DNA from: Eledone cirrhosa
Taxonomy: Eukaryota
Assembly (NCBI GenBank): GCA_964016885.1
Contig: OZ024760.1
Span: 9,858,001-9,922,000 of the forward strand
Direction: 5' to 3'
Length of the DNA: 64,000 nt
Shown here: one piece after another, positions 21,120 to 58,789 of the stretch
How the letters are laid out: each line of letters opens with the position of its first letter
Numbering within the stretch: position 1 is the stretch's first letter
The notes under the pieces: model-generated
What the model was told of the DNA's origin: nothing
Database searches by the model: none
Seen by the model: only the letters and a program-made list of their open reading frames with translations
Program-made: the position numbers and the translations under genes

Positions 21120-21182
21120 TATTTTGTCTGATGAAAACATACTTAAACACCATTGTACCTTTGAAATATGTATAATAAAATA
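21120..21182 (+). ncRNA. Minimal type I hammerhead motif (C-C subtype, partly decayed) inside an inverted-repeat element 21003-21232
   Basis: TATTTTGT-CTGATGA-AAAC ATAC...GTAC CTTT-GAAA-TATGTA-TA-ATAAAATA. Confidence 0.6.
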
Positions 21183-21954
21183 TATATTTTGACTATGAGA
21201 ATATTTTCCGTTTATTAACATTTTGAATAATATGTATGTGTGTGTGTGTGTGTGTGTGTGTGTGTGTCTGTGTGTGTGTGTGTGTGTGTGTGTGTGTGTG
21301 TGTGTGTAATCAGTGAAACCTCTAAGCTATCAATGTAGTCCTCTCTCATCCTGACACGATCCATGGTTCCTATTTATTACTAGAAATATGTTAAACATTC
21401 GTTCACTCCATTTCCTAAATTTTTCAAACATCTCTCCCTCTCTCTCACCTCTCTTCCCCTCTTTTCCTCTCTCTTACTCTCTCTCACCTCTCTTCCTCTC
21501 TCGCCTCTCTCACTTCTCTTACTCTCTCTCCCTCTCTCTTCCCCTCTTACTCTGTCTTCCTCTCTTACTCTCTCTTCTTCTCTCGCCTCCCTCTCTTTCT
21601 TCCCGCTATTTTTTCTCAGCTGCATCTAAGCCCAGTGTAACACTTTTGATAAGATAGCCAGATTTTGCACACACACACACACACACACACACACACACAC
21701 ATACATACATATATATATATATATAGAGAGAGAGACATATATATATATATATATAGAGAGAGAGACATATATATATATATAGGAAAAGAATCAGGACCCC
21801 GACGGCTGAGCTCCGTCCTTTCCGACAGCTAGATCCGAATCTGTTTTCGCTTCTGTATCTTTTATATCTCCACAGTTAATTCATTTGGCCATCAATGTTT
21901 ATCATTGACTGACCAACGGTCAAAAATACAGATATAAATACATATATGTAGTCT

Positions 21955-21996
21955 AACAAAGTTCTTTCGTTGCACATCTGCAACATCATCAGTGGT
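21955..21996 (-). ncRNA. Minimal type I hammerhead motif
   Basis: Minus strand: ACCA-CTGATGA-T-GTTGCA gatg TGCAAC-GAAA-GAAC-TT-TGTT. Confidence 0.65.
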
Positions 21997-22490
21997 ACTA
22001 TTATGTTTCCGCCTGTTGTATTTTATGTCTACGCCATTTTTATTTTATCTGTTTATTTATTTATTTATTTTTGTCTTCTTCTCTGCGCATGCGTTTGCGT
22101 GTGTGTATAGTGTTTGGTGTGTGTGTTCGCGTTTGGGTGACTGTGTTTCGGTTATTGTATTCTATCTTAGTTTACTAGTGTGTGTTTATATGTGTTTGTT
22201 GTTATTGTGCTTGTGTATATATTTATTTATATATATAAACTTTTGCATATATATATATATATATATATATATATATATATGCAAAAGTTTAATTTTAAAT
22301 TGTTGGGATACAACAAGTAAATATTTTATAACTGATATAAAGCACTCGACAAGTTTTTGGAGTAGATATACGATATTAAATATATATATATAAAGATAGA
22401 ACGGTGGAAGGTAATATCCATAGTAGCAGAGCACTCAGTCCATGGGACGAGTTTGGTAGAAGTAGTAACGCACCGGTTAGTTCACCATAG

Positions 22491-22529
22491 CGAGAACAAA
22501 TGTTTCACCTTATGCGGATCTTCAGCTAG
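22491..22529 (-). ncRNA. Hammerhead motif with short stem II
   Basis: Minus strand: CTAG-CTGAAGA-TCC gcataa GGT-GAAA-C ATTT G-TT-CTCG. Confidence 0.5.
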
Positions 22530-22559
22530 AGGAAGAAGAAGACTTTGAATGAAACGGTC

Positions 22560-22875
22560 TGATAGAAGAAGAAGAAAAAGAAAAAGAAAAAGAAAAAGAA
22601 AAAGAAAAAGAAAAAGAAAAAGAAGAAAAAGAAGAAAAAGAAGAAGAAGAAAAAGAAAAAGAAAAAGAAGAAGAAGAAGAAGAAGAAGAAGAAGAAAAAA
22701 AAAAGAAGGAGAAGAAGGAGAAGGAGAAGGAGAAGAAGAAGGAGAAAAAAAAGGAGAAAAAGAAGGAGAAAAAGAAGGAGAAAAAGAAGGAGAAAAAGAA
22801 GGAGAAAAAGAAGGAGAAAAAGAAGAAGAAGAAGAAGAAGAAGAAGAAGAAGAAGAAGAAGAAGAAGAAGAAGAA
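22560..22875. repeat. Polypurine (GAA)n/(GAAAAA)n/(GAAGGA)n tract
   Basis: Read directly; flanked by a direct repeat GAATGAAACGGTC. Confidence 0.95.
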
Positions 22876-54771: not shown

Positions 54772-55960
54772 GGCGGCGAATTGGTAGAGTCGTTAGTTAG
54801 AACGTCAGATAGAATGTTTTGGTAGAGTCGTTAGAACGTCAGATAGAATGGTTTGGTAGAGTCGTTAGAACGTCAGATAGAATGGTTTGGTAGAGTCGTT
54901 AGAACGTCAGATAGAATGTTTTGGTAGAGTTGTTAGAACGTCAGATAGAATGTTTTGGTAGAGTCGTTAGAACGTCAGATAGAATGGTTTGGTAGAGTTG
55001 TTAGAACGTCAGATAGAATGTTTTGGTAGAGTCGTTAGAACGTCAGATAGAATGGTTTGGTAGAGTCGTTAGAACGTCAGATAGAATGGTTTGGTAGAGT
55101 CGTTAGAACGTCAGATAGAATGTTTTGGTAGAGTCGTTAGAACGTCAGATAGAATGGTTTGGTAGAGTTGTTAGAACGTCAGATAGAATGTTTTGGTAGA
55201 GTCGTTAGAACGTCAGATAGAATGGTTTGGTAGAGTCGTTAGAACGTCAGATAGAATGGTTTGGTAGAGTCGTTAGAACGTCAGATAGAATGTTTTGGTA
55301 GAGTCGTTAGAACGTCAGATAGAATGGTTTGGTAGAGTCGTTAGAACGTCAGATAGAATGGTTTGGTAGAGTTGTTAGAACGTCAGATAGAATGTTTTGG
55401 TAGAGTCGTTAGAACGTCAGATAGAATGGTTTGGTAGAGTCGTTAGAACGTCAGATAGAATGGTTTGGTAGAGTCGTTAAAACGTCAGATAGAATGGTTT
55501 GGTAGAGTTGTTAGAACGTCAGATAGAATGTTTTGGTAGAGTCGTTAGAACGTCAGATAGAATGGTTTGGTAGAGTCGTTAGAACGTCAGATAGAATGGT
55601 TTGGTAGAGTCGTTAGAACGTCAGATAGAATGGTTTGGTAGAGTCGTTAGAACGTCAGATAGAATGTTTTGGTAGAGTCGTTAGAACGTCAGATAGAATG
55701 GTTTGGTAGAGTCGTTAGAACGTCAGATAGAATGGTTTGGTAGAGTTGTTAGAACGTCAGATAGAATGTTTTGGTAGAGTCGTTAGAACGTCAGATAGAA
55801 TGGTTTGGTAGAGTCGTTAAAACGTCAGATAGAATGCTTTATGGTATTCGATCCAGTTCTCTGCTCTCTTAGTTCAAATTCCGCCGAGGTCAACTTTGCC
55901 TTTCATCCTTTCGAAGTCGATAAAGAAGTACCAGTGTAGTACTAGGGTCGATTCTTCCCC
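54772..55960 (+). mobile_element. SINE family A variant whose head is expanded into ~31 tandem 34-bp units
   Basis: GGCGGCGAA start, unit TTGGTAGAGTCGTTAGAACGTCAGATAGAATG(G/T)T from 54781 to about 55838, then a single B-box and body AGTTCAAATTCCGCCGAGGTCAACTTTGCC. Confidence 0.85.
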
Positions 55961-56184
55961 TGTGCCCCTTTCTCATTTCTTCTGTCACTTTCTATCTTTC
56001 TCTGGAAGAAATCTGCTGTACCCAGGCCTGGAGAGGTTGGGCTCCGCCAGTCTTAAATGGCCCAAGAAACGCCGTATGTCAATACGTTGCCCCTGCGACT
56101 CTATCAGGAGTTATGGGACTATACATACATATATACATACATATATACATACATACATACATACATACATACATACATACATAC

Positions 56185-56595
56185 ATGGTGGCTGCCAACT
56201 CGTTTTCGAGTACGGCCACTACTTTATATCCATGTAGGAGAACCCCTACCGATGCGCTGAACGAGTGTGACTTTTTAGTCCAGCCAGCGACTTGAAAACT
56301 CTGGTACAAACACTACACTTGTGACAATTATTGACACATAGTGCTGGGCCCATGGTACCATGTGACGACAAGTGCAGAGAGATCTCCAGATACAAAGCAA
56401 TGCCTGTGCCGTGAAGCTTTTATAGTGAGCAAAGGCACTGCACAAAGCCTGTCCCACTCTCTTAACCAAGATGATATTTACCAAAAAGAAGAAAAAGTCA
56501 ACATCATTGGATACCATCAGGGTTGCAGGTGTTATATCAGAGTTTTCCTTCTCCTAGAATTCTGCCTTGACAAAGGCTAAGGGGTCATCTCTCCC
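56185..56595 (-). mobile_element. Bipartite RTE-derived retroposon, 5'-truncated
   Basis: Near-identical to 11472-11884; embedded in (CATA)n. Confidence 0.8.
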
Positions 56596-57316
56596 TATAC
56601 ATACATACATACATACATACATACATACATACATACATACATACATACATACATACCTTTGTTGTGATCCAAACACCAACTAAATAATGAAAAAGTTAAT
56701 TATATTACTAAATCCTTCCAAATTATCTGAAAATTACAGGTGATGTCCGTCATTAGAAATATGGTAATGAAGGTGCTAAATCAAAACTGTACAGTGATAC
56801 CACCTGTAATTGTTAGAACTAATAAAAGGTAACAAAAAGAGTCACCGACAAAAGTCCTTCGTTTAATGTAAAATCGAAAGATGTTTTTTTTTTCCCATAA
56901 AAGTGAATGAAATTTGTGTGAGTGTTGCAGTCTATAAAAAGTATTACACACACACACACACACACACTCTTCGGTCGATCCCCTACATGACTAATATATA
57001 TATTTATGTATGTATGTATATTATGTATATATATAAATATATGTATATTATGTATATATATAAATATATATATATATATATATATATATAACGAATGAGT
57101 TGTGGTAAGGCACCAGAGTACTCAATACTTAGGGTAGTATATATATACATATATATATACACACATATATATATATATATATATATATATATATACACAT
57201 ACATATATATATATATATATATATATATATATATATATATATATATATAGATTTTGAGTTTATGTTGGTTGTATACCTAAACAACATATGTACTTGTCTA
57301 TACCATACTAATTCAA

Positions 57317-57371
57317 ACTGCCTGAAGAGGTCACAGCCAAAGATGGCTGTCACTGAAATATATATAGCAGT
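57317..57371 (+). ncRNA. Best-formed minimal type I hammerhead (C-C subtype), predicted cleavage after 57366
   Basis: ACTGC-CTGAAGA-GGTC ACAGCCA aaga TGGCTGT CACT-GAAA-TATATA-TA-GCAGT, immediately followed by AATAAA. Confidence 0.85.
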
Positions 57372-58789
57372 AATAAACGAAGCTAAATTTTAATCATTTG
57401 ACTTTTATTTAACTTTATTTTATATATATATATATGTAGGTATATATATATATGTATATATATATATATATATATATATAATATTAATTTAAAATATTAA
57501 CAAAATAGATATTCTTGTGATCAAGTATATTTTATTATAAATATTTCAGAGGTACTGAGTTAAGTTCAACAGTACGTCCTCATCAGATAAAATAAGATGA
57601 TGCACGATATACCCTGACATAGTAGATGGTTAAGATTCAGTCATGGTAGTGATTAACATATGACAAAACTCAATATTTATGCCCTAATATTGAGAACATG
57701 AGAAACATATATAATACAAACAATAGAGAGGGTGCTTGTAATACAGTTTAAAAAATACATGGCATCAATATAACAGTTAAACATTTTTTTAAAAACTACT
57801 GAAGAAAGAGGAAAGAAAGGAAAGCATATATATATAACGAAGGAATTGTGGTAAGGAACCAGGTGGACCATAACGCACCAGAGTACTCAATACTTAGGGT
57901 AGTAGAGTGGGTAATAGGAAAAGAGTCAGGATCCCGACGGCTGAGCTCTAGGCGCATTCGGATCTAACTGTCGAAACGGCCGGAGCTCAACCGTCGGGGT
58001 CCTGACTATTATCCTATATATATATATATACATATATATATACATATATATATATATATATATATATGTATATATATATATATATATATGTATATATATA
58101 TATATATGTATATATATATATATATATATATATATATATACATATATATATATGTGTGTGTGTGTATGTATATATATATATGTATATATACATATATATA
58201 TATACACATATATATATATATACATATATATATATACACATATATATATATATATATACATATATATATATACATATATATATATACATATATATATATT
58301 CATATATATATATATATATACATATATATATATATAATATATACATATATATATATATACATATATATAAATATATATATATATATATATAATATATATA
58401 TATATACACACACACACATATATATATACACATATACATATATATATACACATATATATATATATAATATATATATATATATATATATATATATATATAT
58501 ATATACATACATATATATACACATATACACATATATATATATAATATATATATATATATATATATATACACACACACATATAAATATATATACACACACA
58601 CATATAAATATATATACACACATATACATATATATATATATACATATACATATACATATATATATATATATGTGTGTGTATATATTTCTATCGTGTGTCA
58701 CCTGTGATAGGATAATGATTCAGTGACAGTTTGATTATGATGCGGGTGGGTGTCAGGGTGGAACAGGGTGTAGAGACCAGTCAATTCTT

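Follow-up and report, generated by a model that had tools for sequence, protein, structure and literature searches.

The role of the hammerhead ribozymes carried by Penelope-like elements (PLEs) is debated: they cut weakly alone, one of them needs the element protein, and cleavage is dispensable for insertion in vitro. Lunse et al. 2017 is said to be the main paper on PLE hammerheads that cleave as dimers. Published PLEs of the Hydra clade (Craig et al. 2021, PMC8557442), as presented in the available part of that paper, share with the elements described here from Eledone cirrhosa a single ORF for RT with a GIY-YIG endonuclease at the C terminus, the DKT, CxCX5C, CxxC and CxH motifs and the absence of CCHH, together with (TA)n targets, inverted truncated copies, a tail and a 3'-end type I hammerhead with frequent U·U at the first pair of stem II. 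In the same source the 25 Hydra families have a 9-10-nt stem III and GUH triplets, whereas in E. cirrhosa an 8-nt palindrome, an AUA triplet and a longer stem are seen; among these families File S2, as read here, contains no mismatch at position 4 of stem II after which pairing resumes, the position being C-G in 15 and one family having a stem of three pairs. The RWK place of the published clade reads RWR or RWT in E. cirrhosa, and unit length differs, ~3.5 kb as against <3 kb.

PLE hammerheads whose helix III is small and palindromic, including that of Aedes aegypti, share a long helix II and proposed dimer cleavage with those in E. cirrhosa (Cervera and De la Pena 2014, PMC4209133). In the available part of that paper the Penelope element of D. 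willistoni has the same A-U and U-A pairs in stem III, a palindromic tetraloop, AUA and U·U at pair 1, whereas its position 4 is paired (A-U), unlike the E. cirrhosa motif. The U-A second pair with an AUA triplet that an earlier sequence-only reading of this DNA had set apart from the usual form is indeed present, but had already been published for D. willistoni (Fig. S3), so that neither the AUA triplet nor the palindromic stem III is new. Fig. S3, with 56 rows, does contain single mismatches at the fourth pair (S. purpuratus 1 with C·A, Clonorchis 2 with U·U) and a bulge in D. virilis, and the mismatches are not described as conserved in that part of the paper. In E. cirrhosa the register is direct, without the unpaired nucleotide that usually separates 9 from 10.1, and the hammerheads depart from the PLE consensus of these authors (that nucleotide plus G10.1-C11.1).

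Like the elements of E. cirrhosa, the anole Poseidon element PAc (Frangieh et al. 2024, PMC11167929) has a hammerhead at the junction of pseudo-LTR (pLTR) and ORF, a template that must span the cut site and two classes of copy end flanking the tail; by the account available in that paper its hammerhead cleaves only with the element protein added, and the main template is uncut RNA. PAc belongs to the Penelope/Poseidon clade and its ORF starts inside stem II, whereas the E. cirrhosa ATG lies 186-188 nt past the predicted cut; for PAc, protein-assisted cleavage has been assayed. Animal non-LTR retrozymes, as described in the available parts of PMC7229834 and bioRxiv 10.64898/2026.07.22.740005, have in common with our elements the type I fold, a weak helix III, very high copy number and a proposed PLE origin. 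They are short non-coding tandem repeats with a 4-bp helix II and loop-loop contacts, whereas the hammerheads of E. cirrhosa form dispersed truncated ends of coding elements.

The window, that is the whole 64-kb stretch of DNA analysed, had been proposed to hold nine hammerhead loci; with mirror copies these amount to 11 cores, all of which lie where they had been placed and are, judged by their sequence, real type I hammerheads. The features are as follows.

21120..21182, plus strand: type I hammerhead; CTGANGA at 21128, C·C at 21138/21159, with stem II decayed in part; cut predicted after 21174
23599..23659, minus strand: type I hammerhead; CTGANGA at 23651, C·C at 23641/23622, predicted cut after 23607
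24529..24583, plus strand: type I hammerhead of a C·A family; CTGANGA at 24537, C·A at 24547/24560, cut predicted after 24575
24640..24890, minus strand: inverted, shorter pseudo-LTR arm with mirror hammerhead 24690-24754; CTGANGA at 24746, C·C at 24736/24713
24889..25226, plus strand: pseudo-LTR piece of a Hydra-clade element, holding hammerhead, AATAAA and tail and ending in (TA)n
25025..25089, plus strand: type I hammerhead; CTGANGA at 25033, C·C at 25043/25066, predicted cut after 25081
25139..25160, plus strand: conserved hairpin motif of the tail (ACTCC...GAGTGC), ~55 nt beyond the predicted cut, common to many families
29307..29373, minus strand: type I hammerhead; CTGANGA at 29365, C·C at 29355/29330, predicted cut after 29315
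48096..48161, minus strand: mirror hammerhead of 48264-48329; CTGANGA at 48153, C·C at 48143/48119
48264..48329, plus strand: type I hammerhead; CTGANGA at 48272, C·C at 48282/48306, predicted cut after 48321, then tail and (TA)n
51640..51704, minus strand: type I hammerhead; CTGANGA at 51696, C·C at 51686/51663, predicted cut after 51648
57317..57371, plus strand: type I hammerhead of a divergent family; CTGANGA at 57322, C·C at 57332/57351, predicted cut after 57366
57528..57594, minus strand: type I hammerhead; CTGANGA at 57586, C·C at 57576/57551, predicted cut after 57536

The type I core (CUGANGA, GAAA and UH at the three-way junction) is found in 11/11 cores, as are paired positions 1-3 of stem II and, in stem III, the A-U and U-A pairs with the AUA triplet. 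At the fourth pair C·C occurs in 10/11 cores (8/9 loci) and C·A at core 24537, just as first described. When the window was simulated 100 times with a first-order Markov model, no simulation gave a match, as against these 11. Individual copies carry further irregularities: core 21128 has A·C at pair 5 and then just three further pairs, cores 48272 and 48153 have A·A at pair 8, and a point change breaks the loop 3 palindrome of core 57586. By eye, shifting the register of the window copies so that the first nucleotide is left unpaired gave worse pairing. The piece at 24889..25226 is 92.7% identical to the stretch immediately 5' of the ATG in a full-length copy (L200). The loci do not count as nine independent data points: homology to other copies in the window, over 60-500 nt, is seen for 10/11 cores, and the loci fall into about seven sub-families of a single lineage. 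The copy at 57317 had been put forward as an independent case, and core 57322 is indeed without a hammerhead-flank homologue elsewhere in the window, but the Hydra RT linked to its family is 50-54% identical to that of the 25033 family and the argument from independence fails.

Three search patterns returned ~118,000 matches in the genome as against 770 in reversed controls, one pattern giving 80,718 as against 171 when reversed. A tally of position 4 over 36 sequence clusters gives C·C in 27, C·U in 4, C·A in 2, U·C in 1 and C-G in 2, the last two comprising an internal deletion and a mutant row picked from a C-G list; the 5' base, C10.4, is C in 35 of the 36, with C (28), U (4), A (2) or G (2) opposite. 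The near-invariant C-C mismatch proposed at the outset therefore stands in part: the unpaired 5' C is constant, but its 3' partner varies, large families being C·U or C·A, and what is conserved is C·H, a 5' C without a G partner (C, U or A may stand opposite), instead of C·C as such. Among the matches listed, none of the amplified families has C-G at position 4; C-G copies (380/80,718) are spread over all families as single decays, and U·C and A·C have never become fixed in a family.

On a tree of 33 clusters, built from short AT-rich DNA (5/30 branches starred, and singleton clusters may hold post-insertion changes) and leaving out the two-copy U·C cluster, whose inclusion would add one step at C10.4, parsimony assigns 0 steps to C10.4 and 2 to its partner, as against 5-10 compensated steps (mean 7.4) at the 12 other stem II positions, with a Poisson P(0) for C10.4 of about 6e-4 at the mean rate and 7e-3 at the minimum. 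At the level of the lineage these counts uphold the suggestion that position 4 is under selection. Covariation of the neighbouring pairs, on which that suggestion had been based, is also seen. Over stems I, II and III, with stem I open, 87.4% of cells are paired vs 69.0 in shuffles, and 16/19 pairs have two-sided change. In 28 hand-picked representatives C10.4 is the sole invariant column outside the core and stem III; each of the 7 stem II pairs that flank it has changed on both sides (93.9% paired), and the core is invariant in 28/28, H17 being A in 27. Among the 33 clusters, pair 1 of stem II is G-C in 13, G·U in 8, A-U in 7 and U·U in 5, and the 8-nt palindrome of stem III is perfect in 21, contains G·U in 7 and is broken in 5, its central pairs covarying, in line with the proposal of a palindromic stem III suited to dimer cleavage. 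For the seven to eight families with a firm protein link, pair 7 also has a 5' A throughout, so that this subset cannot alone single out C10.4.

The earlier attribution to Penelope-like elements is supported, the hammerheads lying in the pseudo-LTRs of Hydra-clade elements, where the 3' region of one unit gives way to the 5' UTR of the following one. Of 13 copies with ATG context, 9 have the hammerhead 186-188 nt upstream of the RT-endonuclease ATG, and one copy (L191) has two on the same strand, 3,489 nt apart. A single ORF encodes RT with, at its C terminus, a GIY-YIG endonuclease, with DKT as KSDKT or HSDKT (L211, L192, L170), RWR and RWT at the RWK place, a CxCX5C linker, the catalytic E and N accompanied by CxxC and CxH, and GIY-YIG without CCHH, the linker and endonuclease traits being Hydra-clade features according to the available part of PMC8557442; the clade call rests on motifs and on by-eye likeness to Hydra-1_Obim and Hydra-1_Amil, Pfam giving no match for 6/6 Hydra-type pieces. 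A Naiad origin (N-terminal endonuclease, DKA, no canonical hammerhead) is rejected on the C-terminal endonuclease and DKT. Copies end 40-59 or 130-159 nt past the predicted cut site, in one family TA tracts follow, at one of two distances, in 50/58 copies, mirror (inverted) arms are seen in the window, and the tail motif is 50-64 nt past the predicted cut in 31/31 stem II variants among the matches listed. In L170 the C·U family retains an intact ORF, aligned over 794 aa. Linked proteins are 45-65% identical between families, and the C·H families group together with a support of only 64/61 in a protein tree built on firm hammerhead-ORF links, with five rows kept as unlinked; links in L252, L254, L255, L256 and L262 were rejected, hammerhead and ORF being neighbours by nesting and not one element. 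The C·H motif has probably been inherited within one lineage, from one ancestor in one genome, and is not convergent.

Our tentative preference is to regard these as pseudo-LTR hammerheads of one Hydra-clade lineage in which the unpaired C10.4 would be a selected base-specific contact, the element RT-endonuclease being the most probable partner. By analogy with published PLE work the ribozyme is most likely dimer-dependent: the 8-nt palindromes of two same-strand hammerheads in a pLTR-ORF-pLTR transcript would join these as a dimer, unit-length RNA of ~3.5 kb would be set free by cutting after AUA, and a lone hammerhead would remain uncut. Genomic copies require such an uncut single hammerhead, because they end past the predicted cut site. 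Lacking a G partner, C10.4 would flip out of the helix, and the element protein would bind the flipped base and so fold or activate a weak ribozyme, as the protein does for anole PAc. No single geometry is common to C·C, C·U and C·A, and a mixture of the three fits an extruded base. It is possible, if doubtful, that the flipped-out invariant C is an RT docking site gating cleavage on and off, with AAUAAA just past the cut so that cutting would decide polyadenylation. If true, this would amount to a defined protein-gated ribozyme and would provide a one-nucleotide handle on the hammerhead role in PLEs. Against a protein partner stand the divergence of the proteins, to ~50%, and the possibility that C10.4 instead contacts an invariant G in another part of the RNA (core, tail motif); C10.4 may moreover be old, its unpairing incidental, given C-G in 15/25 published Hydra families.

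An RNA tertiary contact of C10.4 (with stem I, the dimer partner, a guanine of the core or the tail, or a metal site), replacing the usual loop I-loop II docking that the long stem II would be unable to make, draws on the same invariance data as a protein contact, and we consider it rather unlikely. Position 4 is where loop II starts in canonical hammerheads, stem I-stem II contacts boost hammerhead activity by orders of magnitude (available part of PMC3088659), and the G-U-G of the invariant-guanine tail motif could pair with the conserved C-R-Y at 10.4-10.6. Stem I, however, has no conserved partner base, no conserved unpaired G being found within 14 nt of the core on either stem I strand, and the tail motif already has its own hairpin partner, while just three pairs would be general and covariation cannot appear between invariant bases. 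GUA-type Hydra families of the same genome, in addition, have long stems II and yet position 4 is paired in 15/15 clusters.

That the mismatch acts as a brake or hinge, weakening stem II so that cutting is slow and full-length template survives, with the identity of the base incidental, appears improbable. A G at 11.4 would stabilize stem II by a computed 3.3-6.7 kcal/mol (9 window loci), pair 1 is weak too (G·U or U·U in 13/33 clusters), copies retain sequence beyond the predicted cut site, and AUA, slower than the three other triplets compared in the hammerhead of eggplant latent viroid (available part of PMC1636495), is another apparently weak feature. Any mismatch would serve as a brake, yet the 5' base is constant and U·C and A·C are not fixed; in 8/9 loci the basal three pairs should form all the same, with a predicted probability of 0.6-0.99, and the extension of stem II past the mismatch offsets the weakening. 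There is little likelihood, in our judgment, of a frozen accident, in which a G once opposite an ancestral C10.4 disappeared in the founder of the lineage and the resulting state was simply passed on. The single lineage in one genome, the C-G pair of 15/25 published families and a copy-level conservation of 89-95%, as expected from post-insertion decay at any site, are all consistent with such an accident, but the neighbours changed 5-10 times, including double transversions (A-U to U-A, G-C to C-G), an unselected unpaired base should change as often or more (unpaired N7 takes 7 steps on the 33-cluster tree), and C-to-T at 10.4, common in single copies among the matches listed, is fixed in no family. 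A constraint on the DNA instead of the RNA fold is very improbable even though the pLTR is thought to carry the promoter and an endonuclease recognition region (available parts of PMC11167929 and PMC6765202), since bases flanking C10.4 vary in step with partners 10-40 nt away and exclusion of G at the opposite position makes sense solely in a folded strand.

What is new is the invariant unpaired C at position 4, not a ribozyme class or an element class; no published description of it was found in the literature searched. A single unpaired base that stays constant across families with half-divergent proteins is a ready target for distinguishing contact from brake. In the whole window Rfam gave 0 matches at the gathering score; an E-value scan of the window was dominated by microsatellite matches to microRNA models, with no hammerhead among the best 150 of 326, and hammerhead families were absent from 57270-57620 at E up to 10. 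The missing match lowers the case for membership of an Rfam family and not that for the predicted hammerhead-like function. A repeat search of the window returned microsatellites and a 62-nt satellite only. More than 100,000 hammerheads of one animal genome thus escape both Rfam and descriptors that require a perfect stem II. Viral contigs yielded 0 relatives among 66 candidates, and metagenomes 7 among 147, with a hammerhead in reach in one only (L312).

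Both strands of the window were scanned for CTGANGA, giving 32 sites, of which 11 have the build described in the sequence-only reading; the core pattern occurs 11 times vs 0 in each of 100 Markov simulations. All 11 cores retain pairing at stem II pairs 1-3 and combine a stem III of A-U and U-A pairs with a 4-nt loop and an AUA triplet, as that reading had claimed, and the mismatch that it noted at pair 4 is present throughout, as C·C in 10 cores and as C·A in the one starting at 24537. Pairing was also said to resume after pair 4, and generally it does, albeit with a second mismatch at pair 5 (core 21128) or pair 8 (48272/48153). 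Because the flanks of 10 of the 11 cores are homologous to other window copies and mirror arms occur at two places, what had been counted as nine loci are copies of ∼7 repeat sub-families and not nine independent cases. The mirror arms and other features of the window are as follows.

24640-25139: mirror arms
48051-48465: mirror arms
∼6400-9500: tandem satellite, 62-nt unit, ∼49 copies at 96-99% identity, from a repeat search
33480-35246, 39681-40170, 59933-60130: ORF fragments, by eye similar to parts of non-LTR retrotransposons (zinc knuckle, endonuclease-like)

An Rfam search of the window did not detect these hammerheads. Four more, of other builds, have core starts at 21992 (-), 44015 (-), 61310 (+) and 61814 (-); three of the four have one additional nucleotide following A9 and no mismatch in stem II, the first eight stem II bases at 61814 are those of the family named after window core 57322 but with the C paired with G, and a decayed relative of 44015 lies at 18556-18701.

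The host genome (3.0 Gb) contains 80,718 matches to the core pattern with an ATDT loop vs 171 for a reversed control, and two patterns for other loops gave 33,775 (control 352) and 3,411 (control 247), all of these being pattern matches that include some nested starts and not curated copies. Of the ATDT matches, 71,607 (88.7%) have C·C at position 4, 380 (0.5%) have C-G, 4,665 (5.8%) lack the 5' C and, by subtraction, ∼4,070 have C·U or C·A. The set of 33,775, mostly one C·U family and one C·C family whose first pair is U·U, has 1,669 matches without the 5' C vs 287 in the control, and over all loops beginning A, C or G a 3' G occurs at position 4 in 743 (control 133). No amplified family is found among the matches listed for the C-G, non-C and 3'-G sets (100 per set), which are single altered copies from every family, nested starts or chance matches. 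Given the large C·U family of the second set and the C·U/C·A remainder of the first, the claim of a near-invariant C-C is restated: across families genome-wide the 5' C (C10.4) is invariant, and its partner is C, U or A (C·H), not G.

Copy counts are uninformative on selection because dead copies decay evenly. Clustering of 205 distinct copies (254 minus 49 fetched as C-G and non-C targets) gave 36 clusters in which position 4 is C·C in 27, C·U in 4, C·A in 2, U·C in 1 and C-G in 2; the other six stem II pairs are paired in 30-35 of the 36. At a finer cut position 4 is paired in 4 of 56 clusters, and clusters with a paired position 4 are internal deletions or copies added later out of the C-G and non-C sets. 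On a weak DNA tree of 33 clusters, leaving out one deletion, one selected mutant pair and one two-copy U·C cluster, parsimony assigns 0 steps to C10.4, 2 to its partner, 5-10 to each of the remaining 12 positions of stem II and 7 to the free core base N7. C10.4 is the sole invariant column outside the core and stem III in an alignment of 28 representatives, hand-chosen from the 56 clusters without deleted, selected and near-duplicate ones. The suggested covariation of its neighbours is borne out there, the seven flanking pairs being 93.9% paired with two-sided changes in each, and their score is reached by 0 of 500 shuffles, a control that ignores relatedness. Between hammerhead families, the firmly linked proteins share 45-65% identity. 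For the 57322 family the link is a same-strand hammerhead that follows the ORF piece downstream, seen in 12 of 20 loci, and its protein shares 50-54% identity with that of the 25033 family; among the families with firm links, pair 7 too has a constant 5' base. In the protein tree the C·H families all fall on one side of a branch whose support is 64/61 only. We regard these sequence comparisons, from one genome, as good comparative evidence that position 4 is under selection.

Both the ribozyme and the element clade that carries it are known, and the unpaired-C hammerhead is a structural variant found throughout one lineage. The genome also contains another Hydra-type build, with a 9-nt stem III and a GUA triplet (20,022 matches vs 1,984 control). 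All 15 of its clusters pair position 4, some of them having mismatches at pairs 1-2, including one C·C at pair 2, and position 4 is also paired in L312, the sole metagenome relative with a hammerhead. One GUA-type Hydra family (L225, L053; genome C1) has stem II pairs 1 and 2 mismatched, including C·C at pair 2, despite its many copies. None of the Hydra hammerheads in the published File S2 (26 rows, 25 families; PMC8557442) has a position-4 mismatch followed by further stem, and 15 have C-G there, 12 of these from one species. Judged by these outgroups, the unpaired C seems to have arisen from an ancestral C-G pair. The D. willistoni Penelope hammerhead (PMC4209133, Fig. S3) has the stem III and the AUA triplet described here, so that neither of these is novel, and a first pair of U·U as in part of the families here, but it pairs position 4; among the 56 rows of that figure a lone mismatch at the fourth pair is seen in one sea urchin row (C·A) and one fluke row (U·U). 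A literature search, covering the available portions of sources that included the alignments of both papers and with Lunse et al. 2017 outside its scope, found no description of the unpaired-C feature.

Full-length frames of the carrier, a Penelope-like element (PLE), contain RWR, DKT, CxCX5C, CxxC and CxH and lack CCHH; DKT, CxCX5C, CxxC, CxH and the absence of CCHH are among the RT-endonuclease diagnostics of the Hydra clade in the part of PMC8557442 available to us. By eye the frames align with Hydra-1_Obim and Hydra-1_Amil from its supplement, and a Pfam search of six Hydra-type pieces gave no match. Compared with one copy, 77 scored genome matches show 86-100% identity, and many of them have open frames. 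In most linked copies a hammerhead lies ∼1.0-1.4 kb beyond the stop codon, and in 9 of 13 ATG-keeping copies one lies 186-188 nt upstream of the ATG; the piece L191 has both, spaced by 3,489 nt. No ORF remnant of the element is found in the window, of which 24889-25226 is 92.7% identical to the pseudo-LTR (pLTR) upstream of the ATG. An intact C·U-family ORF, flanked by inverted hammerheads (L170:2707-5088), could serve for expressing the protein.

Of 33 clusters, 21 have a perfect 8-nt palindrome in stem III, 7 have one with a wobble and 5 a broken one, and the centre of the palindrome covaries in the 28-representative alignment. Such a stem III fits cleavage as a dimer, the mode described for PLE hammerheads with palindromic stem III (in the sections seen of PMC4209133 and PMC6765202): the two hammerheads of one pLTR-ORF-pLTR transcript would be brought together and the unit released, a lone hammerhead remaining uncut.

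With C10.4 core-like and its partner anything but G, the pairing face of this base must presumably stay free. We tentatively favour C10.4 as a candidate protein contact, which would resemble the bulged C of iron-responsive elements. In the available text on the anole PLE (Poseidon PAc, PMC11167929) hammerhead cleavage occurs only with the element protein. A contact of C10.4 with RNA is less likely, as stem I offers no conserved candidate partner. That the mismatch is a brake, purely slowing the ribozyme, appears improbable: repair to the paired state adds a predicted 3.3-6.7 kcal/mol and AUA is a slow cleavage triplet (PMC1636495, in part), but the basal stem II pairs are predicted to form regardless and the fixed base would be left unexplained. 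It is this base, the lack of a stem I candidate and the protein-dependent anole cleavage that lead us to prefer a protein contact, also over an unpaired C merely passed on, which seems less probable again, and over a DNA-level constraint on position 4, which we consider extremely unlikely.

TA tracts past the cut site (58 copies, one family) begin at 40-59 nt in 25 copies and at 130-159 nt in 25 and are absent in 8; with copies ending at these distances beyond the cut, every copy derives from RNA spanning the cut site. A comparable two-ended tail pattern marks two RT start sites in the anole element (PMC11167929, portion seen). In the 25033 family both end classes coincide with short internal TA tracts (L191, L192, L200, window 25131-25227), which suggests priming by microhomology to (TA)n; the 57322 family shows this coincidence less clearly. 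Every one of the 11 window cores has AATAAA just 3' of the predicted cut, ≤25 nt away (for example at 25086-25091), and predicted cutting would part upstream RNA from this poly(A) signal. It is near the cut in 24 of 33 clusters vs 4.8 expected when those 26 nt are shuffled, although offsets shift, clusters are related and A-rich sequence past the cut is also favoured by stem I pairing; the GUA-type clusters have it in 0 of 15. In two families with proteins ∼55% identical (window 25139-25160; L200 and L173 5' UTRs), the 190 nt from cut to ATG contain a pair of related hairpins, ACTCC...GAGTGC and GCTCC...GAGCGC, which may bind the RT or support cap-independent translation.
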